Positions 11,441 to 59,494 of a DNA stretch of 64,000 nucleotides are shown in pieces. The stretch comes from Escherichia phage REP4: sequence record OQ174503.1; one strand, written 5' to 3'. The first letter of the stretch is position 1, and each line of letters opens with the position of its first letter. Both the position numbers and the translations under genes were made by a program. The notes under the pieces are model-generated. The model searched no databases. It was not told the DNA's origin and was given only the letters and a program-made list of their open reading frames with translations.

Positions 11441-11444
11441 CAAT

Positions 11445-11462
11445 GGGGACCTTTCGGTCCCC
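11445..11462 (+). terminator. Intrinsic terminator hairpin ggggaccTTTCggtcccc after gene 54
   Basis: 7-bp GC-rich stem, tetraloop, followed by ATATTTTTATTT. Confidence 0.55.
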
Positions 11463-11468
11463 ATATTT

Positions 11469-11759
11469 TTATTTACGGAATGAAATAAAAGCAGCAACTG
11501 AAGCAACTAAACTGTCTTCAATATAAACTTCAATTTTTACCGGAGCTTCTGACTCAAATTTACCTGTTACTACACCTTGGAAAATACTTTCAGTCTGCTC
11601 TGGCTTTGAAAAATTTTCAGAAGGAAAAATTCCGAACTTTTTATCTGTTCCAAAAATTTTGATAAATTCATCGTAAACTGCTTCATTAAAAGCATTATCA
11701 GCAGGAATAACGCCTTCAACTACAAGTTCTTGACCTAAAAAGCGTAAAGAAGATTTCAT
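11469..11759 (-). CDS. Conserved hypothetical protein (96 aa) at the T4 alt.-3 position
   Basis: ORF with GAGG SD; first gene of its own early transcription unit. Confidence 0.6.
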   Translation of the reverse strand: MKSSLRFLGQELVVEGVIPADNAFNEAVYDEFIKIFGTDKKFGIFPSENFSKPEQTESIFQGVVTGKFESEAPVKIEVYIEDSLVASVAAFISFRK

Positions 11760-11790
11760 TTTGTGTTCCTCATGTTATGTAAGTAAAATT

Positions 11791-11820
11791 ATTATAACAC
11801 CACACGAGGGACTTGTAAAC
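11791..11820 (-). promoter_or_regulatory. T4-type early promoter (GTTTACA -35, TATAAT -10) for the 96-aa ORF
   Basis: rc on plus strand: ATTATA ...18 nt... TGTAAAC; the -35 overlaps the stop of the upstream alt paralog. Confidence 0.5.
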
Positions 11821-13877
11821 TACATTTTGAACTTTTTAGACATTCCGTTGATGTTAACCAAAGAAGCCAAGATTTGAGAAACTTCGTTTTCCTCTTCTTT
11901 TGATTCTTCTACAAGGAATTGATTAAATCCAGCCATTGGACGAACTTCACCAGTTTCCATCAGATGATCGCCATCATATACCGATTCTTCTAATTGTTCA
12001 GAAGGAGGAACGATTGTGCCTTCGATTAGATACTTGTTATAAGCAGTTTCTTTCATCATGTACGTACTCACTTTATTAATCTTCAGCAAAATTCCACGCG
12101 GTAGAATAACTTCAGCTTCTGATGGAAATCCTGATAAATGACCTGGAACGATAACTTTGATTCGCTCAGCTCCTTTAATTACCATACCCACGCTAGTTTC
12201 AGCATCTTCATTAGCATATGCAGAATGACTACCCATATGCATTAAATCTTCAGCATCAACTGAACCTTCTCCTTCACCAGAAAATACTGCACCGGAATCA
12301 TCTAGAGCCATATAGTTTTTACCATGCTCACCGAAGATATTTGGTTTAAGTGATGTGGATACGAAGTTCTTGAAATAGAACATTTTATTTTCAATATTAT
12401 GACGTAAAGTTTTAAAGGTAACTTCTTGTCCACGATAAAGCGTAGTTCCTGGAGGAAGAACTGAACCTTTGGCAAAGGCAGAATCCATTGTCTCGATGTG
12501 TTTAATAGCTCGTTCCATGTATTCTTCACGGGTAGAATCTGGTTTACCCAAGAGGAACGAGTTCATTTCAACATATGAATCTGCACAATAATCTTCAATT
12601 ACATCAGACTCAGCCTGAGTCAGTCCTTTTGGAGTTACTTCGGTGCTTGCGTATTCATATGCCTGAGCAGCAGATTCATTAATCAATTTATAAATGCCAT
12701 TCATGACAAATTGAATAATAGCTACCTTTTCATCTGGCGTGGCTTTAGAACCTTTAACTAAATCATTGACAATTTTCTTAATAACATCAAAGCTATTAGA
12801 AATATTAATGTCAGCAAGATCGCTTAAAATTTTATCGGTTTTATAATCAAAGAATTCTTTATTCTTTAAATATTCTTGAGAACCTTGATATGTTATATCG
12901 CTCTGCAGTCTGATAGACGGATCACGTAAACGTGCATGGGCCAATGCAATATGATTTCGGAAGCTTTCTAGTTCATAATCATTAGATTTAAAACGAGAAG
13001 CACTCCTCATACCACCGATAGCTCCTTTGCTGAAATTTGAACCAATCTGAATAACACCAGAGTTCATTGGTCCTTCTGCTTTATATACCGGAACTTTAGA
13101 TTCAAACTCTTGATATTTCTTAGCGGCGAAGCTATCACCCTGAAGTGAAGCATCGACAGTAGAATATTGAGCTTGTGCTGCTAATCGACGACTAATTTTA
13201 GTTTTCTGAATAACAGCTTGATCCGTGCGCTTATCATTTTCTAGAGCAATAGAAGCGGCAACAGCAACAGCTTTAGGAACAGCATTACCTGTTTTAACGT
13301 CTACATAAACATCACCAACCTTTGATTCAACTTTTGTGAATAACTCAGTTGAAATAGGAGGTACACCTGGAATGTCTTCTAAATTGGCACTTTTACGGTA
13401 AACCATAATATATGCGTACTTTTTATCGTAATCCCAGATTTCCTTTAAAAGAACATATCGACCCGCTCCTTTAGTACGTACTAAACGGTCGGCAATAACT
13501 TGCATTTGACGAGCTGCACCGTTTGTTTTACTCTTTAGTACGCGGAATAAGCATGCGTCAATTTTGTACTGTTTCATTGTCTGAAGAGCAGTATCAAAAA
13601 CCGCATTAATGACACCAATTGGATTTCCACCCAAGTTTTTAAGTTTAACGAGCGATAGTTTCTCATTGACACCTATCATTACGATATGCATCATTTTATC
13701 GCCTGGCTTAACGTTTTTATTTGTATCACCGCCAGAGGTGTATGTACAAAATCTAAATCCAGGAAGCACACTTTCTTCGCCGGCTTGAATAGAAAAAATT
13801 TGAGGTATTTTATGCTTAGGATTTAAGTTAACAACCGGCGCCGAAGCGCCGTCAAATAATTCTGTAATAAGTTCCAT
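11820..13877 (-). CDS. Alt-like ADP-ribosyltransferase paralog (685 aa)
   Basis: N-terminus MELITELFD... shared with Alt; ART motifs YRGQ / FVSTSL / EAEVILPRG; central region unrelated to upstream Alt. Confidence 0.85.
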   Translation of the reverse strand: MELITELFDGASAPVVNLNPKHKIPQIFSIQAGEESVLPGFRFCTYTSGGDTNKNVKPGDKMMHIVMIGVNEKLSLVKLKNLGGNPIGVINAVFDTALQTMKQYKIDACLFRVLKSKTNGAARQMQVIADRLVRTKGAGRYVLLKEIWDYDKKYAYIMVYRKSANLEDIPGVPPISTELFTKVESKVGDVYVDVKTGNAVPKAVAVAASIALENDKRTDQAVIQKTKISRRLAAQAQYSTVDASLQGDSFAAKKYQEFESKVPVYKAEGPMNSGVIQIGSNFSKGAIGGMRSASRFKSNDYELESFRNHIALAHARLRDPSIRLQSDITYQGSQEYLKNKEFFDYKTDKILSDLADINISNSFDVIKKIVNDLVKGSKATPDEKVAIIQFVMNGIYKLINESAAQAYEYASTEVTPKGLTQAESDVIEDYCADSYVEMNSFLLGKPDSTREEYMERAIKHIETMDSAFAKGSVLPPGTTLYRGQEVTFKTLRHNIENKMFYFKNFVSTSLKPNIFGEHGKNYMALDDSGAVFSGEGEGSVDAEDLMHMGSHSAYANEDAETSVGMVIKGAERIKVIVPGHLSGFPSEAEVILPRGILLKINKVSTYMMKETAYNKYLIEGTIVPPSEQLEESVYDGDHLMETGEVRPMAGFNQFLVEESKEEENEVSQILASLVNINGMSKKFKM

Positions 13878-13880
13878 GAT

Positions 13881-15974
13881 TTATCCTTGAACGAACTTGT
13901 AAGGCATGTTTGCAATATCTATGCAAGATGCAATAATTCCAAGAGATGATTCTACTTTTTGTTTAACATTTGATGAAACAAATGATGCAAAGTCAACTCT
14001 GTCTTCTATTTCAATATCACCTGTCATTGCAACTACTTCACCAGTTTCCATTAGACGGTCACCGTCATAAATTACTGATTCGGTGAGTTCTTCCGTAGTC
14101 ATAACTTCAGCTTGAATGAGTTTTGTATTATTAGATGTTGTTCCGTCATTATTAGAAGCATCAGTTATTTTATTAACTTTGACCATCAATCCGCGTGGTA
14201 GAATTACTTCAGCTTCTGTTGCTATTCCTAGACTTCCTGGATATACAACATTAACTTTATGAGCTCCATCAATTGCCCATCCTATTTGAACTTTAACGTA
14301 TTCAGGATTTTCTTTATACGCTCTTATTTCGTTTGGATTAATAGTTATTCCTTCTTCATTTTTATCAACTGTCAATTCATTACGAGCTTCTGGTTCTAAA
14401 AGACCAATACCAGCATGTGTAATTCCAAAACGTCCAAAAATGATAGGAGTTAAAGAAGTAGATACAAAATTTCTGAAATAGAACACTTTATTTTTAACTA
14501 GTGCTTCGTATATAGGAGCAGTCATGCTTTGAGCACGATAAACTGTAATGCCTTCTGGTATACGATCACCATTTTCAAAAGCTGAATCTAAGTTATTTAT
14601 AGCAGATTCAATTTCTTTTTCACTCATTACATCATATCGTTCTGGATTGTAACGACCCAAAAGAAGATTATTGATGTCAGTATATCCTGAACCACAATAC
14701 TCTCTAATGCCGCGCTTTTGTGATGGAGTATATTTAGAACCATCACGGGCAATAGTAATATCAATCATTGGACCTGCACCAATTCCAGAAAAGCTATAAA
14801 TCATTCTTTTAAGGAATTTAGTTTTTGCTGCGTTCCAGGAATTTTTAGTTATTTCTTCCCAGACTTCATCTGGCTGCCCTTTACGAGTTTTATTATGTTT
14901 ATCAAGCCAATTATCTTTATATTCTTCAAAGAATTGATTAACAGCTGCTGCGTATTTCTCTAAACATTTTATTGAAGTAGTTGGTTCATTTTTAATCGCA
15001 TTAAGAATTACATCTTTAATTTTTTCAGAAACTTCATTAACCTCACTTTTTGAAAAGAATTTATAATCATAGTGAAGTTCATCTGCAGTTCCTTCGGCAA
15101 TGATTTTTGCTGCCTTAGTTTTAGAAGCTAATGAATTAATTCCAAGTTTCATTTCTTCCGCTTCGGGAATTAAAGGAGCGGTAGCAGGTTTATTGAAATT
15201 AGCTGCGGTAGATTCATACTTCTGGAATAATTCGCTTTCAAATCTAGAAGATTCTAATGATTGACTTTGTGCAATTGCTCTACGGGAAATTTTAACTTTA
15301 ACGATTACAGCTTGGTCAGAACGTTTATCATTTTCTTGCGCAATAGATGCCGCAATTGCCTCATTTTTAGTTACTTGAGCTCCAGTATCTTTATTAATAT
15401 AAACATCGCCGACTTTCGATTCAACTTTAGTAAAGAGCTCGGTACTAATTTCCGGAACTCCTGGAATGTCTTCTAGTGATACATTTTTGCGATGTATAAG
15501 AATATATGCATACTTTTTATCATAATCCCAGAGTTCCTTAAGAAGGACGTATCTGCCACCTGAACGACTACGGATAAGTCTATCAGCAATAACTTGAATT
15601 TGTCGAGCTTGACCGGCAGTTTTAGACTTAAGAATACGAAGCATGCAGGCATCAATTTTATACTGACGCATTGTTTGCATTGCAACAGTAAAAACTGAAT
15701 TGATGTAATTAATTGGGCTTGGACCGAGACCTTTTAATTTAGCAATTGAACCTTTAGCAGTTAATGTAAAAGGAACAATATGCATCATTTTATCGCCCAT
15801 TTTTAAATCGCGATTAGTATCACCTCCAGATGTATAGGTACATAAACGAAAGCCTGGTTGTTCAATTGCATCATCAACGTGAACTGAAAAAATTTGCGGT
15901 ATTTTCTTCTTTGGATTTAAGTTTGTAATCGGAAGAGTAGTATCTTCGTCAAATAATTCTGTAATGAGTTCCAT
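13881..15974 (-). CDS. alt: Alt ADP-ribosyltransferase (virion-packaged, injected; 697 aa from second ATG)
   Basis: MELITELFDEDTTLPITNLNPKK...; ART motifs YRAQ / FVSTSL / EAEVILPRG; GAGG SD favours ATG at 15974 over 15977. Confidence 0.9.
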   Translation of the reverse strand: MELITELFDEDTTLPITNLNPKKKIPQIFSVHVDDAIEQPGFRLCTYTSGGDTNRDLKMGDKMMHIVPFTLTAKGSIAKLKGLGPSPINYINSVFTVAMQTMRQYKIDACMLRILKSKTAGQARQIQVIADRLIRSRSGGRYVLLKELWDYDKKYAYILIHRKNVSLEDIPGVPEISTELFTKVESKVGDVYINKDTGAQVTKNEAIAASIAQENDKRSDQAVIVKVKISRRAIAQSQSLESSRFESELFQKYESTAANFNKPATAPLIPEAEEMKLGINSLASKTKAAKIIAEGTADELHYDYKFFSKSEVNEVSEKIKDVILNAIKNEPTTSIKCLEKYAAAVNQFFEEYKDNWLDKHNKTRKGQPDEVWEEITKNSWNAAKTKFLKRMIYSFSGIGAGPMIDITIARDGSKYTPSQKRGIREYCGSGYTDINNLLLGRYNPERYDVMSEKEIESAINNLDSAFENGDRIPEGITVYRAQSMTAPIYEALVKNKVFYFRNFVSTSLTPIIFGRFGITHAGIGLLEPEARNELTVDKNEEGITINPNEIRAYKENPEYVKVQIGWAIDGAHKVNVVYPGSLGIATEAEVILPRGLMVKVNKITDASNNDGTTSNNTKLIQAEVMTTEELTESVIYDGDRLMETGEVVAMTGDIEIEDRVDFASFVSSNVKQKVESSLGIIASCIDIANMPYKFVQG

Positions 15975-15997
15975 CATATCCTCTCTAGTGTTTATTC

Positions 15998-16005
15998 TAT
16001 TTATA
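15998..16005 (-). promoter_or_regulatory. Late promoter (TATAAATA on minus strand) upstream of alt
   Basis: Plus-strand TATTTATA about 25 nt upstream of alt ATG. Confidence 0.5.
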
Positions 16006-16026: not shown

Positions 16027-16215
16027 TTAATAATCTAATGGTAAGAGAGTACGATATATTTCAAACTTCGGACCTTTTTCATAGGCATCAAATGTTTCTG
16101 TAAATTTATTATAAGCATATGCATCTACAAATTCGAGAATGACTTGTGATACAGAAGTAGAAACATCTCCACCTTCTTTTTGAGCCACGACAATTGTTTC
16201 TAAGTAAGCTTTCAT
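16027..16215 (-). CDS. Hypothetical small protein (62 aa) between ligase and alt
   Basis: Track ORF; stop followed by GAAG-type hairpin; 4-nt overlap with gene 30. Confidence 0.5.
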   Translation of the reverse strand: MKAYLETIVVAQKEGGDVSTSVSQVILEFVDAYAYNKFTETFDAYEKGPKFEIYRTLLPLDY

Positions 16216-17675
16216 AGACCAGTTACCTCATGAAAATCACCAAATACATCTTCGAATGTATTAGCTTTAGTTTTATCTTCACGTAAACGAATCGCAATCG
16301 GAAGAAATAATTTAACGTAATCAGTGCGGCCATCAGATTTTAACCAACCGTTGCATTCGCACTCTAGAATTTTTCCAATATAATAATTTTGGTTTTCCAT
16401 AATGCGAGTACGGTCAAGTTCATGCGATTTTACACCGGCTTTATCTTTTAAGCCTGAACCAGCATTTACTTTAATTTTTCCACATTCTGATTCAAGAATA
16501 AATCCACCAGCTTTAGTAGGGTCTTTACGGTGAGGATAAATTCCTACAATTTTTAAATCAACATCAATTACTTCTTTAAATTTATAAAGATTTTTTGAAC
16601 GAGCATTTTCCCATAATCCATCGATATTTTTGAGAATAATACCTTCAAGACCTTGGTCAATATACTTTTTATAAATTACCTTAGCTTCATCTAGGTTATT
16701 TACTACCTGGTTTTCAATTAAAATTACTTTATCATATCCTGATGTCATTTGTTCTAGTTTAGAAAAACGTACATCATATTTTAAACGAAACGCTGGAAGA
16801 CCGTATATTTCTACCAACGGGACATAATCCCAGACCTGAAACTTCATGCATTGAGCTTCTTTTTCAGAAATGGTTCCTTTTAAGGATTTATTGGCGATTC
16901 CATTAGAAGCAGTACGAGATTCCGCTACTTCGGCGAATTCTTTAGCTTTACTAATTTCAGGATAAGCATCAAAAAGAAAATCTAGGCCTTCTGGTTCCTT
17001 TTTAACTTGCTCATGGTATACCAATTCGCCATCAATTAACACACCTTCTGGATGAATCTGGCGGGCTTCAGCAGTCATTTTGATTAATTCTTCCTTAAGA
17101 AGATCTAATCCTAGATATTCATTACCAGCTCGTGATAAAAGACGAACATCATCTAATTCATCGCCTCGGACTTCAGCAAAACACCGGGCTCCATCTGCTT
17201 TTAACTGTGCAAAGGCTGGAAATTTGATATTCTTACTAATGCCCTTTTCATCATAAGAACTTGCCAGCATTTGAGGTTGTTCAGGAATTAAACCTGGCCA
17301 AACTTTATTTGCAATAGATACTGAAGCACCGCATTCAAGGTCTCGCATCATAACTCGACGCAAAACTTCAACATCATCCTTTTTACCATCAGTGATATAT
17401 CCAGTTAATTCCTCAATTGCAGCATTTCCAGTCAATTTCCGAGTAGCTAACGTGAATTCAATGAAGTCAAGCATATCGGTAATAGTCAGCATTCCAAAAC
17501 TCTGGGTAGCAATACCAGGTTTAGGCCATTTCTTGATATAATACTGTAACCCACGAGAATAAGTCAGACGATATACTCGTTTAAGCAATTCATTATCTTT
17601 ATTCTTTTCAAGAATTGCTTGCTTCTGCTTAGTTGATCCAATAGATGCTATTTCATTCAGAATTTTAAGAATCAT
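16212..17675 (-). CDS. 30: gp30 ATP-dependent DNA ligase
   Basis: 487 aa; adenylation motif KADGARC; length and sequence as T4 DNA ligase. Confidence 0.97.
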   Translation of the reverse strand: MILKILNEIASIGSTKQKQAILEKNKDNELLKRVYRLTYSRGLQYYIKKWPKPGIATQSFGMLTITDMLDFIEFTLATRKLTGNAAIEELTGYITDGKKDDVEVLRRVMMRDLECGASVSIANKVWPGLIPEQPQMLASSYDEKGISKNIKFPAFAQLKADGARCFAEVRGDELDDVRLLSRAGNEYLGLDLLKEELIKMTAEARQIHPEGVLIDGELVYHEQVKKEPEGLDFLFDAYPEISKAKEFAEVAESRTASNGIANKSLKGTISEKEAQCMKFQVWDYVPLVEIYGLPAFRLKYDVRFSKLEQMTSGYDKVILIENQVVNNLDEAKVIYKKYIDQGLEGIILKNIDGLWENARSKNLYKFKEVIDVDLKIVGIYPHRKDPTKAGGFILESECGKIKVNAGSGLKDKAGVKSHELDRTRIMENQNYYIGKILECECNGWLKSDGRTDYVKLFLPIAIRLREDKTKANTFEDVFGDFHEVTGL

Positions 17676-19939: not shown

Positions 19940-19980
19940 AGTATTTTCCTCAGTAAGGGGCCGAAGCCCCTCATTTTATT

Positions 19981-20346
19981 TTAAATATCAAATTCGTTAA
20001 GAACTACATCAAAGATCGCTTCAAGATGCTCAGGTTTAGCTCTGTTACTCAGAATATGACGAATCCAAGTTTTAACCAGAAGCTTACGATTGACGCCATT
20101 CCAGCAAGGATGAGTACCTAAATCGCGTTGACGGAAATCATCATCTAATGCGATTTTAAAAGAAGAACCTTCTTTCGTGATTGAAACCGTGATGCCATTT
20201 TCAAATCGCATATAAACGTAGTTAGGAGTCATATACTGTTCAATTTCGCATACTGATCCATTTTGATGTTTCCAAAGGCAGATAGTATCAATAGAACCTG
20301 CAATACCATTAGAAACATATTTACGTTCAAAGTTGATGTAGTTCAT
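19981..20346 (-). CDS. Hypothetical protein (121 aa)
   Basis: Track ORF; followed by hairpin ggggccgaagcccc. Confidence 0.6.
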   Translation of the reverse strand: MNYINFERKYVSNGIAGSIDTICLWKHQNGSVCEIEQYMTPNYVYMRFENGITVSITKEGSSFKIALDDDFRQRDLGTHPCWNGVNRKLLVKTWIRHILSNRAKPEHLEAIFDVVLNEFDI

Positions 20347-20414
20347 TTTTATTCTCCGAGATGTTTAATTGCGGTACAGGTATATAATATCATATCCTGT
20401 ACCAAAGTAAACAA

Positions 20415-20747: not shown

Positions 20748-20834
20748 TTTATTCTCCTTTGTTTGTGTAAGATAATACTATCACAAAGGAGCCATACTGT
20801 AAACAACTTTGTGCAATCTTTGGAAAATAAAAAA

Positions 20835-23383: not shown

Positions 23384-23616
23384 AGTACGCCATACACCCT
23401 TTGTGCTTCAACTAATCCATCAAAATCCAGTTTGAGATGTGTTATTTGGTCACCATCGCCTGGATTCACAATTACTAATACTGAACGAGGAGTTTCGGTA
23501 ATAACACGAACCGACGTTTCAGGAAATCGTTCAGAAACCTTATTTACCAATTCTTGAGCAAATAGTTTAACTTTTTCTTGAAATTCTTTAACAGTAATTG
23601 GTTTTTCACTTAGCAT
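23380..23616 (-). CDS. Conserved hypothetical protein (78 aa)
   Basis: Track ORF. Confidence 0.6.
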   Translation of the reverse strand: MLSEKPITVKEFQEKVKLFAQELVNKVSERFPETSVRVITETPRSVLVIVNPGDGDQITHLKLDFDGLVEAQRVYGVL

Positions 23617-24137
23617 GTTGATCCCAGCTCCTTACTTTCAACGTTTTTAACTAATTTGACAGAAACTAATTCAGCATCTTGAGTAATCATTACCGGACCT
23701 TCTTCATACTCTTCGAGATATTCTAGAGCTTTCTTTTTAGCTTCTTCCTTCGTATCAGTTTGAGCATAGATATAAAACATACAACCAGTAATACCTACTA
23801 CTTTCCACTTAATTTCTTTATCAGTTTTAATTTCAAATTTACTTGTAGAATCATCTTTTTGAACTTCTTCGAAAAAAGAATATTCTAACATATAAGCAAT
23901 TGAAAATAACGGGCTAACTTTATAGGATTCGCCCATTACATCAACAGCTTTATACCAGCAATCATCAATTTCACGTTTAATGCTAATAACATTTTTCGCA
24001 GGATCTATTTTTACTTTAAATGAATTTTCCCCAATAAACTGGGCAATTCGTTTATTAGCCCCGCAGGTTTCATTAAAAATATCTTTATACCCAGCTTTAA
24101 AGCGATAAACCTTATCTTCTTCAAACCATTCGCTCAT
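23610..24137 (-). CDS. Conserved hypothetical protein (175 aa)
   Basis: Track ORF. Confidence 0.6.
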   Translation of the reverse strand: MSEWFEEDKVYRFKAGYKDIFNETCGANKRIAQFIGENSFKVKIDPAKNVISIKREIDDCWYKAVDVMGESYKVSPLFSIAYMLEYSFFEEVQKDDSTSKFEIKTDKEIKWKVVGITGCMFYIYAQTDTKEEAKKKALEYLEEYEEGPVMITQDAELVSVKLVKNVESKELGSTC

Positions 24138-24199
24138 TTCAATTTCCTCATTTGTTTTGGTAGAGCTATAATATCACAACTCTACCTTAAAGTAAACTA

Positions 24200-26617: not shown

Positions 26618-26967
26618 TTAGAAAGGTCCTGGATGTCTTCTGCGAACTTGTTGAAGGAGTTGTTGATTTGTTTTTCAACCAATCCTGGCTTATGAGCCAC
26701 CACATCCGCCTTCTTTGCGTCTTTGCGCAGTTTTTCATTTTCACGCTCAATAGCAGCAATTGCCTCACGATTTTTATTATTCATCGCATCAATATAATTA
26801 TACTGAATTCGCAAATTATCTAATGCTAAAGCGTTTTCATTGGCCGTTTTTGTAATTTCTACAACAGACGTTTCTAATCTTTCAATTTTACTTTTTAAAA
26901 TTAAAGAAGTTCCGCCCAATGCAATTACAATTAATAGCAAGCCTGCTGTCGTATTACTTAATTGCAT
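26614..26967 (-). CDS. pseT.3: i-spanin (inner-membrane, Rz equivalent)
   Basis: N-terminal TM helix (GLLLIVIALGGTSLIL) then coiled-coil; 117 aa. Confidence 0.75.
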   Translation of the reverse strand: MQLSNTTAGLLLIVIALGGTSLILKSKIERLETSVVEITKTANENALALDNLRIQYNYIDAMNNKNREAIAAIERENEKLRKDAKKADVVAHKPGLVEKQINNSFNKFAEDIQDLSK

Positions 26968-27464
26968 AAAGTTTTAATAACCTCTATAATATCGTCTTGA
27001 GAAAGACCGTTAATTAAAATATGATGTTCAGCAGGAGATTTAGAAATTTTAAAGCATGCCTCAACATCTTCTGCCATATCCGATGCGCTACGATTTGGAT
27101 TACTAATTCCAAGACGATGTTTTCCCGTTAAAGGATTAACGATGATATAGCATTTACAGTTATTGATATGAACATTAGGTTGAGTCTGATTAATGAACAC
27201 ATCACAATCATATTTCGCAAGCTGATTTTCTAAAAAGACTTTCATCTCCTCAACTGCATCAGGAAGCATATCACGGGCTTGCTCAAGACGACGATTTCGA
27301 TATTCTTTAATGGTCGTTTTCCGCTTGACTTGCTTAGCTAAATCTTTCTTAAGATCGGTGATATATCCAACTCGACGATTTCCTTTAAATACAGAAATCC
27401 CATCTGTAGTATCACCGTATGCTTCAACGACCATCTCAGTAGTAATAAGCTGCAAATCCATCAT
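26958..27464 (-). CDS. alc: Alc, inhibitor of host transcription on cytosine-containing DNA
   Basis: 168 aa, MMDLQLITTEMVVEAYGDTTDG...; recognised as T4 Alc. Confidence 0.85.
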   Translation of the reverse strand: MMDLQLITTEMVVEAYGDTTDGISVFKGNRRVGYITDLKKDLAKQVKRKTTIKEYRNRRLEQARDMLPDAVEEMKVFLENQLAKYDCDVFINQTQPNVHINNCKCYIIVNPLTGKHRLGISNPNRSASDMAEDVEACFKISKSPAEHHILINGLSQDDIIEVIKTLCN

Positions 27465-27492
27465 AAAGTCCTCATGTTATGTCAGTAAGACT

Positions 27493-27522
27493 ACTGTAAC
27501 ACAACACGAGGGACTTGTAAAC
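27493..27522 (-). promoter_or_regulatory. Early promoter (GTTTACA -35, TACAGT -10) upstream of alc; homologous to the element at 11791-11820
   Basis: Shares the module ...ACACGAGGGACTTGTAAAC and ...CCTCATGTTATGT.AGTAA with 11761-11820. Confidence 0.45.
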
Positions 27523-27525
27523 AGC

Positions 27526-29113
<1,588 letters not shown>

Positions 29114-29120
29114 AATAAAA

Positions 29121-29134
29121 TGGGCCTTGCGGCC
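29121..29134 (-). promoter_or_regulatory. Hairpin gggccGCAAggccc between the SD (GGAG) and start codon of denA
   Basis: SD lies 23 nt from the ATG in linear sequence but 9 nt if the 5-bp/tetraloop hairpin forms. Confidence 0.5.
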
Positions 29135-29140
29135 CACTCC

Positions 29141-35427: not shown

Positions 35428-35670
35428 TCAGACAGACTTTTTCACAATTTTCCAATCAGCTTTAAACTGTTCAACGTCAGAATGATAAATCCAAAATCCT
35501 GCGCTTTCTCCATCCTCATAAAGAGGGCATCCATCACATTCATCTTCCCATCCCATATCACGTAAAAGATGTTCAGCTTTTTCAACAAGTTCAGAATCTT
35601 TACCGATGATATTAAAATACCATTTACCTCTAACTTCTGAATCTTTGATGCTCTGGCGTTGTAATCTCAT
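35428..35670 (-). CDS. Conserved hypothetical protein (frd.3 position, 80 aa)
   Basis: Track ORF preceded by early promoter-like element. Confidence 0.6.
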   Translation of the reverse strand: MRLQRQSIKDSEVRGKWYFNIIGKDSELVEKAEHLLRDMGWEDECDGCPLYEDGESAGFWIYHSDVEQFKADWKIVKKSV

Positions 35671-35724
35671 TTTATTCTCCTTAGTTGATAGGGTAATAGT
35701 ATCACACTACTACCCTTCTGTAAA

Positions 35725-36377: not shown

Positions 36378-36420
36378 GTTATTTTCCTCTTTAATCATCA
36401 GCAGTATTGCCGATAGTTGT

Positions 36421-36450
36421 ATAGTACCATAAAGCTTTATGCTTGTAAAC
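36421..36450 (-). promoter_or_regulatory. Early promoter cassette (GTTTACA - 17 nt - TACTAT), copy 1 of 3
   Basis: rc on plus strand ATAGTA ...17 nt... TGTAAAC, A/T-rich UP-like tract; near-identical copies at 53596-53625 and 57643-57672. Confidence 0.5.
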
Positions 36451-36482
36451 CGTTTTGTGAAAAAAATTTTTGAAATAAAAAA

Positions 36483-36501
36483 GGGGACCTCTAGGGTCCC
36501 C
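36483..36501 (-). terminator. Gene 32 intrinsic terminator hairpin ggggaccTCTAgggtcccc
   Basis: 8-bp stem 22 nt after gene 32 stop, followed on minus strand by U-run. Confidence 0.55.
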
Positions 36502-39797: not shown

Positions 39798-42700
39798 ATG
39801 GCCGAGATTAAAAGAAAGTTCAGAGCAGAAGACGGTCTGGACGCAGGTGGCGATAAAATAATCAACGTAGCTTTAGCTGATCGTACCGTAGGAACTGACG
39901 GTGTTAACGTTGATTACCTAATTCAAGAAAACACAGTTCAGCAATATGATCCAACTCGTGGATATTTAAAAGATTTTGTAATCATTTATGATAACCGCTT
40001 TTGGGCTGCTATAAATGATATTCCAAAACCGGCAGGAACTTTTAACAGTGGACGCTGGAGAGCATTGCGTACTGATGCTAACTGGATCACAGTCTCATCT
40101 GGTTCATATCAATTAAAATCCGGTGAAGCTATTTCGGTTAACACTGCAGCTGGTAATGATATTACGTTTACTTTACCATCTACTCCAATTGACGGTGATA
40201 CTATCGTTCTCCAAGACATTGGAGGAAAACCTGGGGTTAACCAAGTTTTAATTGTAGCTCCAGTGCAAAGTATTGTAAACTTCAGAGGTGAACAAGTACG
40301 TTCAGTACTAATGACTCATCCAAAGTCACAGTTAGTTTTAATTTTTAGTAATCGCCTGTGGCAAATGTATGTGGCTGATTATAGTAGAGAAGCTGTAGTT
40401 GTAACACCAGCGAATACTTATCAAGCGCAATCCAACGATTTTATCGTACGTAGATTTACTTCTGCTGCACCGATTAATATTAAACTTCCGAGATTTGCTA
40501 ATCACGGCGATATTATTAATTTCGTCGATTTGGATAAATTAAATCCACTTTATCATACAATTGTTACTACATACGATGAAACTACATCAGTACAAGAAGA
40601 TGGAACTCATTCTATTGAAGGCCGTACATCTATTGACGGTTTCTTGATGTATGATGATAATGAAAAATTGTGGAGATTGTTTGACGGAGACAACAAAGCA
40701 CGTTTACGTATCATAACGACTAATTCAAACATTCGTCCAAATGAAGAAGTTATGGTATTTGGTGCGAATAATGGAATAACTCAAACAATTGAACTCCAGC
40801 TTCCAACTAATATTTCTGTTGGTGATACTGTTAAAATTTCCATGAATTACATGAGAAAAGGACAAACAGTTAAAATCAAAGCTGCCGGTGAAGATAAAAT
40901 TGCTTCTTCAGTTCAATTGCTGCAGTTCCCAAAACGTTCAGAATATCCGCCTGAAGCTGAATGGGTAACTGTTCAAGAATTAGTTTTTAACGGTGAAACT
41001 AATTATGTTCCAGTTTTACAACTTGCTTATATAGAAGATTCTGACGGAAAATACTGGGTTGTACAGCAAAACGTTCCAACTGTAGAAAGAGTTGATTCTT
41101 TAAATGATTCTACTAGAGCAAGATTAGGCGTAATTGCTTTAGCTACACAAGCTCAAGCTAATGCTGATTTAGAAAATTCTCCACAAAAAGAATTAGCAAT
41201 TACTCCAGAAACATTAGCTAACCGTACTGCTACAGAAACTCGTAGAGGTATCGCAAGAATAGCAACTACTGCTCAAGTGAATCAGAACACTACATTCTCT
41301 TTTGCTGACGATATTATCATCACTCCTAAAAAGCTGAATGAAAGAACTGCTACAGAAACTCGTAGAGGTGTTGCTGAAATTGCTACGCAGCAGGAAACTA
41401 ATGCAGGTACTGATGATACTACAATCATCACTCCTAAAAAGCTTCAAGCTCGACAAGGTTCTGAGTCATTATCTGGTATTGTAACTTTTGTATCTACTAC
41501 AGGAGCTACTCCAGCTTCTAGTCGTGAATTAAATGGTACAAACGTTTATAATAAAAACACTAATAATTTAGTCGTTTCGCCTAAAGCTTTGGATCAGTAT
41601 AAAGCTACTCCAACGCAACAAGGTGCAGTAATTTTAGCAGTTGAAAGTGAAGTAATTGCTGGACAGAGTCAAGAAGGATGGGCAAATGCTGTTGTAACGC
41701 CAGAAACGTTACATAAAAAGACATCAACTGATGCAAGAATTGGTTTAATTGAAATTGCTACACAAAGTGAAGTTAATACAGGAACTGATTATACTCGTGC
41801 AGTCACTCCTAAAACTTTAAATGACCGTATAGCAACTGAAAGTTTAAGTGGTATAGCTGAAATTGCTACACAAGTTGAATTCGACGCAGGCGTCGACGAT
41901 ACTCGTATCTCTACACCATTAAAAATTAAAACCAGATTTAATAGTACTGATCGTACTTCTGTTGTTGCTCTATCTGGATTAGTTGAATCAGGAACTCTCT
42001 GGGACCATTATACCCTTAATATTCTTGAAGCAAATGAGACACAGCGTGGTACACTTCGTGTAGCTACACAAGTTGAAGCTGCTGCAGGAACATTGGATAA
42101 TGTTTTAATAACTCCTAAAAAGCTTTTAGGTACTAAATCTACTGAAGCACAGGAAGGTGTTATTAAAGTTGCGACTCAGTCTGAAACTGTGGCTGGAACG
42201 TCAGCAAATACTGCTGTATCTCCAAAAAATTTAAAATGGATTGTGCAGAGTGAACCTACTTGGGCAGCTACTACTGCAATAAGAGGCTTTGTTAAAACTT
42301 CATCTGGTTCAATTACATTCGTTGGTAATGATACAGTTGGTTCTACACAGAGCTTAGAGCTATACGAGAAAAATAGCTATGCAGTATCACCATATGAATT
42401 AAACCGTGTATTAGCAAATTATTTGCCGTTAAAAGCAAAAGCTGCTGACGCGAATTTATTAGATGGTCTAGATTCATCTCAGTTCATTCGTAGGGATATT
42501 GCACAGACGGTTAATGGTTCACTAACCTTAACCCAACAAACGAATCTGAATGCCCCTCTTGTATCATCTAGTACTGCTACGTTTGGTGGCTCGTTGGCTG
42601 CTAACTCCACATTTACTATACGTAACACAGGAACTCCGACCCGCATCGTTTTCGAAAAAGGTCCTGCATCCGGTGCAAACCCGGTTCAGTCAATGAGCAT

Positions 42701-53554: not shown

Positions 53555-53595
53555 TTTCTAATCTCCGTAATTCTGTATCAGTAGTTGATAGTTGT

Positions 53596-53625
53596 ATAGT
53601 ACCACAGTATGCTTTGGTTGTAAAC
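53596..53625 (-). promoter_or_regulatory. Early promoter cassette for motA, copy 2 of 3
   Basis: rc ATAGTA ...17 nt... TGTAAAC; near-identical to 36421-36450 and 57643-57672. Confidence 0.5.
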
Positions 53626-53655
53626 CGTTTTGTGAAAAAATTTTGAAATAAAAAA

Positions 53656-53675
53656 GGGAGAGCCTCGGCTCTCCC
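53656..53675 (-). terminator. Intrinsic terminator hairpin gggagagcCTCGgctctccc
   Basis: 8-bp stem, followed on minus strand by a U-run. Confidence 0.55.
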
Positions 53676-57608: not shown

Positions 57609-57642
57609 TTTATTCTCCAAATCCGTATCAGTTGATAGTTGT

Positions 57643-57672
57643 ATAGTACCACAGTCCTTGTGGTATGTAAAC
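57643..57672 (-). promoter_or_regulatory. Early promoter cassette, copy 3 of 3
   Basis: rc ATAGTA ...17 nt... TGTAAAC immediately after denB stop. Confidence 0.5.
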
Positions 57673-57688
57673 CGTTTTGTGAAAATTT

Positions 57689-58246
57689 TTAAATGGAAAG
57701 ATACCATCCGCTGTAGTTGCTTTTTCTTACAACCTTACGAAGGTCTTCTCTATCACCGATGAACTTCGGAGTGTACTGGATGACACCTGGGTGAATTTCT
57801 TTAGTGTTGAATATAATTATACAGTCAGCGACCTGATGATTCAGAATGGGCCCTAGATTTATTCCAGAACCGTATGGATACTCTCCGCTGCATCCTGTTG
57901 TTACAGAAATCCAACGTGAGTCAGTTTGATGTGTCTTAACTTCTACACGAAGCCCGCAGTATCTTGGATGCGCCAATACATCCCATGCGTATGTATACGG
58001 GTCATTAACATCCTCTTGGCCTTTGTTAACATACCCGCTTAACCAATCTGCTACAAAAAACTCTGCATACACAGCGATACGGCATCTTTCGATGACTTCT
58101 GCTTTATCCTGATTAGGATTTTGCTTTAAAGAGTATCTTGCTGTATCAGCAATTTTGACCTTCATTTCACTAGTCAAGTCATTGTTCGACATGGTAAATG
58201 CCGGAATCTGAAATAGTCTCTGTAAACCCGGATTCGTTTTCTGCAT
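57689..58246 (-). CDS. denB: Endonuclease IV
   Basis: 185 aa ORF at the T4 denB position and length; identity by recall. Confidence 0.75.
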   Translation of the reverse strand: MQKTNPGLQRLFQIPAFTMSNNDLTSEMKVKIADTARYSLKQNPNQDKAEVIERCRIAVYAEFFVADWLSGYVNKGQEDVNDPYTYAWDVLAHPRYCGLRVEVKTHQTDSRWISVTTGCSGEYPYGSGINLGPILNHQVADCIIIFNTKEIHPGVIQYTPKFIGDREDLRKVVRKSNYSGWYLSI

Positions 58247-58332
58247 TAAACTTTCCTTTTACGTCGGAATCACTGATATTCATACAATAAATCATAACTT
58301 CCCTTAAAACAAAAGGGCCGAAGCCCCTTATT

Positions 58333-58527
58333 TTATTTGAATTGTGCAATTCTTTTTTCTAAACAATCTGCGTAAGATTTCATTGAGATGAACTGTGAAA
58401 GCAGTAATTCTTGCTCAACTGCATTAACCGTTGAAAACTTTTCACTTTCTAAAAATTTGCTCAGCGCATTAATTTTGAGCATTAATTGATCGTATTCTTC
58501 TTTTACTCGTGCTTGATAACCTAACAT
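58333..58527 (-). CDS. Hypothetical protein (64 aa)
   Basis: Track ORF flanked by GAAG-loop hairpins. Confidence 0.55.
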   Translation of the reverse strand: MLGYQARVKEEYDQLMLKINALSKFLESEKFSTVNAVEQELLLSQFISMKSYADCLEKRIAQFK

Positions 58528-58555
58528 AATTTTCCTTAGTTAAGGGCCGAAGCCC

Positions 58556-59494
58556 TTATTTGAATTGTTCAGTAACGTCTTCAACTACTTCGTATTGGCA
58601 AGTACGCATTTTAGCATCGTTGTAATCAATCGGAATTGATACTACATCGCGAGGATGCACTTTAACTTTTACAACTCGACTGGTTGAACTACCAAAGTGA
58701 CGAATATAAGATTTAGAACACACATGCAGACCACGAGAACAAGTTTGTGTATCATCGTCATTCACACGAGTACGTGGCATTTTAACTACTTTACCAGGAC
58801 TGTTATCAAAAGTATTTGAATGGCAGTCAAAGTAATTACTGCGAACTACTTTCCAAGCATAGAAGTAACCGTCTTCTGTAATTTCAATATCGTTTGCTAC
58901 CAAGAAATCAAAGAGTCGAGATACCGCTTTTTGGCTTGGGTTTTCCAGCAGATTTTCCAAGAACGGAAAATAAAATTCAAAGTTTTCGCCTTTTTCCATC
59001 GAATCGAGAATACGATCAACTAAACCAGACCGCAATTCAATGTTTTGATAGAACAAGCTTCCACCTTCAATTCGAACATCACCGGAAATATATTTTTCAA
59101 CAGCGCGACGAACGTTAATTTTTTGTGCTGCTTCTTCCAATTTATCTGCAACAAGCAGGTTAAGAATTTCCTGGAAGTTTGAATGAGTATTAGGAGTTGC
59201 GTTATAAGTTACGCCGTCAACAGTAATTGAAATGAATTTTTTAGATGCATTCCAAATAATGTCAGATTTAGCAACTGGAGCAATAGCTACATCACTCTTA
59301 ACTTCAACTGTAATGTCACCGCTAATAGTAACTTTGGAGCGTTCAGCTTCTTCAGCATTTTTCAAAACACGACGGATGGTGTCAACCGATACATCTTTCC
59401 AATAAGCCAATTCCTGTTGGGTATAATTACCGCTTGAATACAGTTTAACAATTTCAGCTTGTTCGTTTTTGGTCAGGCATTTAATATTGTACAT
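58556..59494 (-). CDS. rIIB: rIIB membrane-associated protein
   Basis: 312 aa, MYNIKCLTKNEQAEIVKLYSSGNYTQQELA... Confidence 0.95.
   Translation of the reverse strand: MYNIKCLTKNEQAEIVKLYSSGNYTQQELAYWKDVSVDTIRRVLKNAEEAERSKVTISGDITVEVKSDVAIAPVAKSDIIWNASKKFISITVDGVTYNATPNTHSNFQEILNLLVADKLEEAAQKINVRRAVEKYISGDVRIEGGSLFYQNIELRSGLVDRILDSMEKGENFEFYFPFLENLLENPSQKAVSRLFDFLVANDIEITEDGYFYAWKVVRSNYFDCHSNTFDNSPGKVVKMPRTRVNDDDTQTCSRGLHVCSKSYIRHFGSSTSRVVKVKVHPRDVVSIPIDYNDAKMRTCQYEVVEDVTEQFK

Follow-up and report, generated by a model that had tools for sequence, protein, structure and literature searches.

The genes alc and alt.-3 of Escherichia phage REP4 (OQ174503.1), which is a Tequatrovirus and a near relative of T4, are each preceded by a copy of the same 54-nucleotide (nt) cassette, which spans exactly the -35 hexamer of an early promoter through the Shine-Dalgarno (SD) sequence of the gene. 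This cassette was analysed within a 64,000-nt stretch of the phage DNA, referred to below as the window. It probably joins an early promoter to a leader whose SD is buried by the promoter's own spacer whenever RNA is read through from upstream, an arrangement that would confine translation of alc and alt.-3 to promoter-initiated mRNA.

As we envisage it, the module combines an early (sigma-70) promoter with a short leader, and its two copies would drive transcription of the immediate-early genes alc and alt.-3. The stretch that separates the -35 and -10 elements would be read twice, as the promoter spacer in the form of DNA and as an anti-SD arm once it is transcribed from upstream. This arm would pair with the leader and bury the SD in a hairpin with the -10 element and the start site in its loop. 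RNA arriving from rnlA or from the late alt transcript would contain both arms, and alc and alt.-3 would be translated poorly from it; mRNA initiated at the embedded promoter would have no 5' arm and its SD would be free. The likely outcome is that the two proteins would be made only while the early promoters fire, despite later transcription across their genes, and the alt.-3 copy may be kept similar to the alc copy via occasional exchange.

The repeated cassette, its promoters and its hairpin

The two copies lie as a direct repeat on the minus strand, at 11767-11820 (copy A) and 27469-27522 (copy B), and are identical at 48 of 54 positions (89%), with similarity running from the G of GTTTAC to the end of GAGGA and sharp limits on both sides. 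Copy A (GTTTACAAGTCCCTCGTGTGGTGTTATAATAATTTTACTTACATAACATGAGGA) is followed by ACACAAA and then by the ATG of alt.-3 at 11759, and copy B (GTTTACAAGTCCCTCGTGTTGTGTTACAGTAGTCTTACTGACATAACATGAGGA) by CTTT and then by the ATG of alc at 27464, the distance from SD to ATG being 8 nt at alt.-3 and 5 nt at alc. Both genes, which were identified from the list of open reading frames (ORFs) and the T4 annotation, are on the minus strand, alt.-3 (96 aa) at 11469-11759 and alc (168 aa) at 26958-27464. The alc start is a tandem ATG ATG (27459-27464, codons at 27464 and 27461), annotated at the second ATG in T4 and at the first in other records, with an SD spacing of 4 or 7 nt. When the 19-mer at the 5' end of the repeat (GTTTACAAGTCCCTCGTGT) was sought with up to 3 mismatches, only these two sites were found in the window, with a chance expectation of 0.00. 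Two copies were found in all 499 Tequatrovirus records searched (997 places), and T4's own two copies are identical at 53 of 54 positions.

Each copy contains an early promoter. Promoter A (11791-11819) consists of TTTACA (11819-11814), a 17-nt spacer, TGn and TATAAT (11796-11791), with 11 of 12 consensus matches, and promoter B (27493-27521) of TTTACA (27521-27516), a 17-nt spacer, TGn and TACAGT (27498-27493), with 9 of 12. Both therefore have the hexamer types, the 17-bp spacing and the extended -10 of T4-type early (sigma-70) promoters. They resemble the T4 early promoters, described as UP / -35 GTTTAC / TGn / -10 (Hinton, 2010; PMC2988021), in TTTACA, the 17-bp spacer, TGn, TAnnnT and an A-rich upstream region, and also in serving genes that are early in T4. 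They differ from them in sharing spacer and leader well beyond the consensus, and this extra part is self-complementary. The alc copy is labelled 'predicted early promoter' in the related record fPS-90, and promoter features are absent from the T4 GenBank records NC_000866 and AF158101. Time-resolved omics of T4 place alc and alt.-3 among genes with early RNA and early protein (PMC9697503, supplement), while the RNA of rnlA is early and its protein late, and alt belongs to the late genes (PMC9697503).

Upstream, stop codons end 0 nt (copy A) and 3 nt (copy B) before GTTTAC: the TAG of the alt paralogue (11822-11820) overlaps the G of GTTTAC in promoter A, and the TAA of rnlA lies 3 nt upstream of the GTTTAC of promoter B.

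Within the cassette, the spacer segment GUCCCUCGUGU... is complementary to ...ACAUGAGGA(C), and the predicted read-through RNA folds as one long hairpin in which the promoter spacer is the 5' arm, the -10 element and the presumed start lie in the loop, and the leader with its SD is the 3' arm. In copy A the anti-SD 5' arm GU.CCUCGUGU.GUGU (11797-11812, minus strand) faces the 3' arm ACAU.ACAUGAGG.AC (11765-11780), with the SD GAGG at 11771-11768; in copy B the spacer arm GUCC[C]UCGUGUUGUGU (27499-27514, minus strand) faces ACAUAACAUGAGGAC (27468-27482), with GAGG at 27473-27470. The fold of copy B reaches -28.6 kcal/mol (z = -4.9; reached by 0 of 200 shuffles) and that of copy A -15.2 kcal/mol (z = -1.9; 9 of 200), so that the stem at alc is clearly non-random and that at alt.-3, with copy A taken alone, marginally so. 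The original prediction, made from the sequence of the window, had described a shared module of about 55 nt before the 96-aa ORF and alc, an early promoter embedded in it and a spacer complementary to the SD. All three parts hold: the module is the 54-nt repeat, both promoters follow the consensus and have T4 orthologues downstream with early RNA and protein, and CCUCGUGU and ACAUGAGG form 8 pairs, one of them G.U, within a predicted helix that is longer than first noted.

SD accessibility and read-through transcription

The cost of exposing the SD was computed as the free energy of making positions -15 to -4 single-stranded, with a context of -100 to +40 for T4 read-through RNA; for promoter-initiated RNAs, +1 was assumed from the consensus to lie 5-9 nt after the -10 element. 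Among 95 predicted genes of the window, for which the median read-through value was 3.9 kcal/mol, alc ranked second (13.6 kcal/mol) and alt.-3 third (11.1 kcal/mol), and 30.8 had a value of 7.5 kcal/mol. The highest value of the window, 14.9 kcal/mol, stems from a probably mis-called start of denA, where a G+C-rich hairpin at about 29113-29140 (minus strand; GGGCCGCAAGGCCC, then AUUUUAUU) occludes the ATG at 29113. An upstream GTG start is annotated for denA in T4, which would put this terminator-like hairpin in the coding region, and the consensus terminator scan did not flag it. In T4 itself, alt.-3 (17.5 kcal/mol), alc (12.7 kcal/mol) and 30.8 (9.6 kcal/mol) are the top three of 33 annotated genes, against a median of about 3-4 kcal/mol.

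Promoter-initiated RNAs are essentially unstructured when folded, and opening their SD would cost 1.0-1.5 kcal/mol at alt.-3, 1.3-2.9 kcal/mol at alc and 0.2 kcal/mol at 30.8. For the window the contrast between read-through and promoter-initiated RNA is thus 11.1 versus 1.4 kcal/mol at alt.-3 and 13.6 versus 1.7 kcal/mol at alc. A computed fall from 11-17.5 to 1-3 kcal/mol agrees with the prediction that the SD is occluded in long RNA and free in promoter-initiated RNA, as does the position of the 5' arm, which lies in the -35/-10 spacer and hence upstream of any plausible start, with the SD within the 3' arm; a start inside the stem had been proposed at the outset. De Smit and van Duin reportedly established how SD accessibility governs initiation, and on that basis initiation would presumably drop by orders of magnitude for a difference of 10-16 kcal/mol. 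A general rule that all early promoters occlude their SD was ruled out, only 3 of 12 promoter-preceded genes of the window doing so (Mann-Whitney p = 0.46).

Long transcripts are expected to cross both cassettes. A late-promoter motif, TATAAATA, lies at 15998-16005 on the minus strand, 21 nt upstream of the alt ATG, and late RNA that reads through into alt.-3 probably originates there. Between this motif and the end of alt.-3, the minus strand has a single terminator-like site, the hairpin at 11464-11443, which lies after alt.-3, and late alt mRNA should therefore cross the alt.-3 ribosome-binding site. That hairpin (11443-11464) is bidirectional and shared with gene 54, which converges on it with alt.-3. 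The scan found no terminator-like site between rnlA and alc, and two mapped T4 middle promoters, PnrdB and PI-TevIII, lie upstream (Hinton, 2010; PMC2988021). On these sequence features, the read-through from alt or from rnlA that had been postulated at the outset would be expected.

Ribosomes translating the upstream genes bear on how such RNA would behave. One possibility is translational coupling, in which the base of the stem would be unzipped, and the SD exposed, only by a ribosome reaching the end of rnlA or the alt paralogue, so that output would track upstream translation on long mRNAs. The geometry is suggestive, with upstream stops 0-3 nt from the -35 element and 8-12 nt from the first base of the 5' arm, and in copy A the SD opening cost falls from 11.1 to 2.3 kcal/mol with a ribosome footprint that extends 12 nt beyond the stop. 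The same footprint, however, leaves 8-11 kcal/mol at T4 alt.-3 and 14-18 kcal/mol at alc, where by this computation a ribosome stopped at the rnlA stop leaves the stem closed. Reinitiation would also have to span about 60 nt from the stop to the start codon, a long distance, and in T4 the RnlA protein is late and Alc early, the opposite of a coupled output (PMC9697503). We therefore regard coupling as quite improbable. For a leader that blocks read-through translation the consequence is narrower: because a terminating upstream ribosome would open the weakened copy A, the block at alt.-3 of the window may be leaky.

Evolution of the stem at alc, alt.-3 and other early genes

The strongest evidence for the spacer:SD helix comes from alc, the region of which was compared in 13 lineages (Tequatrovirus and 12 further ones, all used without selection). 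An alc promoter with an anti-SD arm directly after the -35 element, paired to the SD, was found in Karamvirus (AS6, UCUCCAUUUG / CAAAUGGAGA), Jiaodavirus (KPN6, AUCCUCAUCAG / CUGAUGAGGAU), Dhakavirus (QL01, UCUCCUCAU / AUGAGGAGA), Gelderlandvirus (NP4, AUCUCCGUUUAGU / ACUAAACGGAGAU), Bragavirus (SdyM006, AACCUCUCAUUUU / AAAAUGAGAGGUU) and Winklervirus (Vettismorki, UCCUCAUUUCGUU / AACGAAAUGAGGA; 5' arm / 3' arm in each case). The stems of these six genera have 9-13 bp, with SD opening costs of 11.4-15.1 kcal/mol, and the stem parts outside the SD differ in each lineage (CAUUUG, CAUCAG, CAU, GUUUAGU, UCAUUUU and AUUUCGUU). The SD is covered by the 3' arm, and the 5' arm contains CUCC or CCUC, in 7 of the 8 sampled lineages that have an alc hairpin.

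Each spacer pairs preferentially with its own leader. Duplexed with its own SD region, the spacer averages about -20 kcal/mol, as against about -10 kcal/mol with the SD regions of other lineages; an own duplex of -15 kcal/mol or lower was reached in 7 of 13 lineages versus 6.4% of cross-lineage pairs, and when spacer and SD partners were permuted among the 13 lineages, none of 200,000 permutations reached the observed duplex sum. A MAFFT alignment gave 84% of cells paired versus 68% when shuffled (reached by 0 of 500), with 7 of 12 alc stem pairs changed on both sides (reached by 6 of 500 shuffles), and slid controls were 39-55% paired. The register of pairing differs in T4, and the alignment misplaced two single-base gaps (QL01 and KPN6), so that counting by column understates the pairing; the own-versus-cross permutation does not depend on alignment. 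Lineage-specific pairing and changes on both sides together indicate that the spacer:SD helix at alc is maintained by compensatory evolution, and that the alc version of the cassette is ancient and under selection. The spacer:SD stem first proposed from the window alone is thus supported, from evidence beyond the reach of that reading, by compensatory change in six other genera.

The stem appears to act as RNA. A DNA cruciform is disfavoured for the T4-type stem: because of its G.U pairs, the antisense RNA is 8-9 kcal/mol less stable than the sense RNA, and the stem is best read as an RNA structure. This strand test is uninformative in the other genera because their stems are fully Watson-Crick.

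These comparisons also bear on whether the shared leader is instead a binding or processing site, for a translational repressor such as RegA, an RNase or a co-regulator of alc and alt.-3, with the complementarity of the spacer secondary. About 25 distinct Tequatrovirus cassette copies show no change in the 3' arm and leader (TTAC..ACATAACATGAGGA) but differ at at least 7 positions of the 5' arm, and ACAUGAGGA is kept upstream of alt.-3 even in genera without the stem, as a protein site might be. A conserved protein site would not, however, produce what is seen at alc, where leaders differ completely between genera yet complement their own spacer. With 9-16 bp, the stems would be short substrates for RNase III, Rfam 15 gave no match at gathering score in the whole window, and we know of no such factor for alc or alt.-3. 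This explanation thus appears highly improbable.

Variation within Tequatrovirus is informative about exchange between the copies. The 5'-arm variants CUCGUG, CUCAUG, CUUAUG and CUUGUG all keep pairing, and 4 of 5 transition-variable 5'-arm sites are sites where a transition preserves the pair; we do not count this pattern as evidence because the tolerated sites are G/C positions favoured by AT-biased mutation. The variant GTTCCTTATG occurs at alc in U115 and at alt.-3 in the sampled genome L003, and TATAATAATC at alc in PP01 and UFV11 and at alt.-3 in L002 and L022, and the finding of the same 5'-arm and -10 variants at both loci in different phages points to occasional exchange. Protein-anchored searches of IMG/VR for alt.-3 and alc returned 5-6 loci each, all near-identical, which give variants only and carry no covariation information, and a metagenome scan anchored on the 3' arm, a design blind to 3'-arm variation, returned 12 loci, 4 of them chance matches.

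The alt.-3 copy appears to have a shorter history than that of alc. In the other genera examined, the early promoter of alt.-3 is an ordinary one whose short hairpin lies wholly in the spacer, and the SD is free (2.4-4.3 kcal/mol); in five other genera this in-spacer hairpin has an SD-like loop, for example GCACAAGGAAGUGC and AUCACAAGGACGUGAU. Confinement of the alt.-3 stem to Tequatrovirus implies a genus-specific acquisition of an alc-type cassette, which was probably placed there by recombination between promoter cassettes.

It could be argued from the same facts that the duplication is a neutral by-product of recombination and that the alt.-3 stem has no function of its own. The absence of the stem outside the genus fits this view, as do its degradation in the window (-15.2 kcal/mol) and in AREG1 (-17.1 kcal/mol) and an identity among Tequatroviruses too high for conservation alone to prove selection. 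Most alt.-3 copies of other Tequatroviruses nevertheless keep -23 to -28 kcal/mol, and in slur11 and L003 a change of GUC to GUU lengthens the pairing with the alt.-3-specific flank GAGGAAC. Neutrality also cannot cover alc, where covariation is strong, and we consider it very unlikely.

Outside the repeat, a third and unrelated instance of the arrangement lies before the 30.8 homologue (20754-20803, minus strand), where the arm CUCCUUUGU (20791-20783) is complementary to ACAAAGGAG (20762-20754), which contains the SD. This pairing is kept in three genera with other sequences, such as UCCAGUG / CACUGGA in VR7 and UCUCC / GGAGA in NHEP11. The strongest spacer:SD stems that we saw belong to the 30.7 homologues of Karamvirus AS6 and Gelderlandvirus NP4 (L041 and L044 among the genomes compared), arranged as GTTTACA-UCCUCCGUUGUAU ... 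AUACAACGGAGA, with SD opening costs of 20.0 and 17.6 kcal/mol, respectively; 30.7 of T4 has a hairpin with the -10 element in the loop and a free SD. We tentatively propose that 'promoter-gated translation' could extend to a subset of immediate-early genes of the Straboviridae, comprising alc (at least 7 genera), 30.8 (at least 3), the 30.7 homologues (Karamvirus and Gelderlandvirus) and alt.-3 (Tequatrovirus), as a protein-free, post-transcriptional shut-off of early proteins after the early promoters have fallen silent, with middle and late transcription still crossing the genes.

Several observations weigh against a translational role for the cassette. Of the 13 lineages compared, 6 have no SD-pairing stem at alc; it is missing from Mosigvirus, a Providencia phage, Acinetobacter phage Ac42, Aeromonas phage phiAS4 and Cronobacter phage LPCS28, and Gaprivervirus has a variant before an alc-like ORF. 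The alt.-3 stem is lacking in Mosigvirus, Gaprivervirus, Dhakavirus, Karamvirus, Jiaodavirus and Gelderlandvirus. Copy A of the window is weak (z = -1.9), three substitutions loosening its inner helix and one of them improving the -10 element to TATAAT, and it is the copy that a ribosome footprint would largely open. Together with AREG1 and L002 it is also one of three 5'-arm variants that break pairs, and the similarity among Tequatrovirus sequences in general is too great for constraint to be proved. As a class, early promoters show no enrichment of SD occlusion among the promoter-preceded genes of the window, and a literature search for alc and alt.-3 found no 5' ends, read-through transcripts or translation rates.

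Known systems and other features of the window

The cassette fits the described class of promoter-early stem-loops (PeSLs), which the literature takes to be terminators or attenuators, and also linkers for recombination (Arbiol, Comeau, Kutateladze, Adamia and Krisch, 2010, PMC2839356; Comeau, Arbiol and Krisch, 2014, PMC4122927). Both copies have the PeSL layout of an intergenic stop codon, an early promoter, an SD and an ATG, with a stem-loop in or overlapping the promoter (-28.6 and -15.2 kcal/mol). They share with PeSLs the bounding by an upstream stop and a downstream ATG, the strong sigma-70-type early promoter, the SD at the 3' end, the stem-loop between or over the -35 and -10 elements and the repetition in the genome with signs of exchange between copies. 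They differ in that the SD itself lies in the 3' arm, that no T-run follows and that there are two copies per genome; the published work does not discuss translation (the word is absent from Arbiol et al., 2010, PMC2839356), and the PST/T4 paper draws the stems upstream of the promoter.

It remains to ask whether this is an ordinary PeSL in which the overlap with the SD is incidental. The stem-loop would then attenuate or terminate upstream transcription, as proposed for RB49 and phi1, and the cassette would be mainly a patch of homology for recombinational shuffling. One such stem-loop terminated transcription in a reporter (Arbiol et al., 2010, PMC2839356), the sharing of identical 5'-arm and -10 variants between the two loci of different phages speaks for exchange, and the window promoters at 20411, 24196 and 35724 sit in hairpins that do not touch the SD. 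By its sequence, however, the stem does not look like a terminator or attenuator of the usual kind, there being no T-run after either hairpin and neither being flagged as terminator-like, and the tails are A-rich in other genera too. An incidental overlap is also hard to square with the coverage of the SD and the CUCC or CCUC of the 5' arm at alc described above, and a role in shuffling with a cassette sequence present in only two copies per genome, recombination between which would delete about 15.7 kb including genes 30 and 31. We consider this explanation unlikely. Other, unrelated promoter hairpins are frequent in the window.

An intrinsic terminator in the strict sense was ruled out, the stems being followed by the tails ACACAAAAUG and UUUAUGAUGG with no T-run and neither hairpin being flagged. 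The likeness to such terminators ends with a stable intergenic hairpin, the stem here having no U-tract and being only moderately G+C rich.

Hairpins that sequester an SD are known from T4 e (lysozyme), soc, 49, I-TevI and Aeh1 mobE, with a difference of about 100-fold for lysozyme (Uzan and Miller, 2010; PMC3014915). In the e, soc, 49 and I-TevI type, as in our proposal, the SD or AUG is held in a helix in long RNA, and a short RNA from an inner promoter lacks the 5' arm and is translated (PMC3014915). The known inner promoters, however, are late or middle and the blocked RNA is early, so that the gene is switched on late, whereas here the inner promoter is an early sigma-70 promoter, its spacer is the 5' arm and the effect on translation is a predicted one. 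No late motif TATAAATA was found inside the cassette. With an early inner promoter whose spacer supplies the anti-SD strand, early-only translation is predicted, and the lysozyme-like logic with reversed timing that the original prediction had put forward would hold by analogy, as a class of mechanism with an early inner promoter in place of a late one.

The PeSL class and the principle of SD sequestration are already known; the proposed use of an early-promoter spacer as an anti-SD arm would be a variation on them. None of alc, alt.-3 and 30.8 is among the SD-sequestration examples listed by Uzan and Miller (2010; PMC3014915). We found no paper describing an SD block for alc, alt.-3 or 30.8 in a search that did not extend to the older T4 literature (Liebig and Rueger, 1989; Mosig, 1998), where an earlier mention of the alc hairpin is possible.

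If promoter-gated translation is correct, it would have several consequences. It would make read-through copies of alc, alt.-3 and 30.8 untranslatable and add a cis-acting layer to early shut-off; it would account for the early-protein behaviour of Alc and Alt.-3 in the face of later transcription, which has to cross their genes. The shut-off of early proteins in T4 is usually attributed to promoter switching, mRNA decay (RegB) and repression by RegA. The translatability of an mRNA would be set by the promoter of its origin, through a dual-coded DNA segment that went unnoticed in a much-studied genome, and read-through RNA-seq coverage of these genes would not be a measure of their expression. 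In engineered T4-like phages, Alc dosage may shift according to whether the embedded promoter is kept or lost. More generally, an RNA function can place constraints on the spacer of a sigma-70 promoter, normally regarded as almost unconstrained in sequence, and PeSL stem-loops gain a possible role beyond termination.

The genes around the cassettes are arranged on the minus strand as in T4: rnlA (27526-28686), alc ... gene 30 (16212-17675), alt.1, alt (698 aa, 13881-15977), an intact alt paralogue (685 aa, 11820-13877) and alt.-3. The two full-length tandem alt (ADP-ribosyltransferase) paralogues, of 685 and 698 aa, are 70-78% identical in patches; where the second one lies, T4 retains no more than the remnants alt.-1 and alt.-2. 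About 500 T4-like phages matched a 2-kb probe from around the alt.-3 site at 90-98% identity, the best being Shigella phage SH-2 (98.3%).

Early-type promoters also lie in strong hairpins that leave the SD untouched at 20346-20411, 24137-24196 and 35670-35724 (minus strand; z = -5.4, -4.1 and -4.0, respectively). In all three the 5' arm is in the spacer, the -10 element is in the loop or stem and the 3' arm stops before the SD. The hairpin at 35724, before the frd.1 homologue, has compensatory changes that preserve it in Mosigvirus and Gaprivervirus (GGGUAGUAGUG / UACUAUUACCC, GAUAGGGCUA / UAGCCCUAUC and AGGGCUAUGGUA / UACUAUAGCCUU). The promoter at 24196 precedes a 175-aa ORF (23610-24137, minus strand) that lies between cd.3 and cd.2 and is absent from T4; VR7 has at this position an ORF of similar size, annotated as JS98-like, and the hairpin-embedded promoter fits gain or loss mediated by a cassette.

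Several early promoters (starts 61951, 57671 and 36449, minus strand; also in genomes L013, L014 and L040-L044) have a short hairpin wholly in the spacer with an SD-like loop (CCACAAGGAUGUGG, CCACAAGGACUGUGG). An 80-nt repeat family of 64-75% identity (36412-36491, 53587-53666 and 57634-57713) comprises three early promoters with their A/T-rich upstream regions and is a further promoter-cassette similarity of the PeSL kind.

Elsewhere in the window, a direct repeat of 110 nt (1-110 and 289-398; 92% identical) lies at the left edge, and a tail-fibre-like gene at about 41-42 kb (41140-42124) contains several repeat families of 25-68 nt. A terminator-like hairpin, GGGGCCGAAGCCCC followed by a T-run, occurs in three copies, at 19943-19980, 58300-58337 and 58529-58566.

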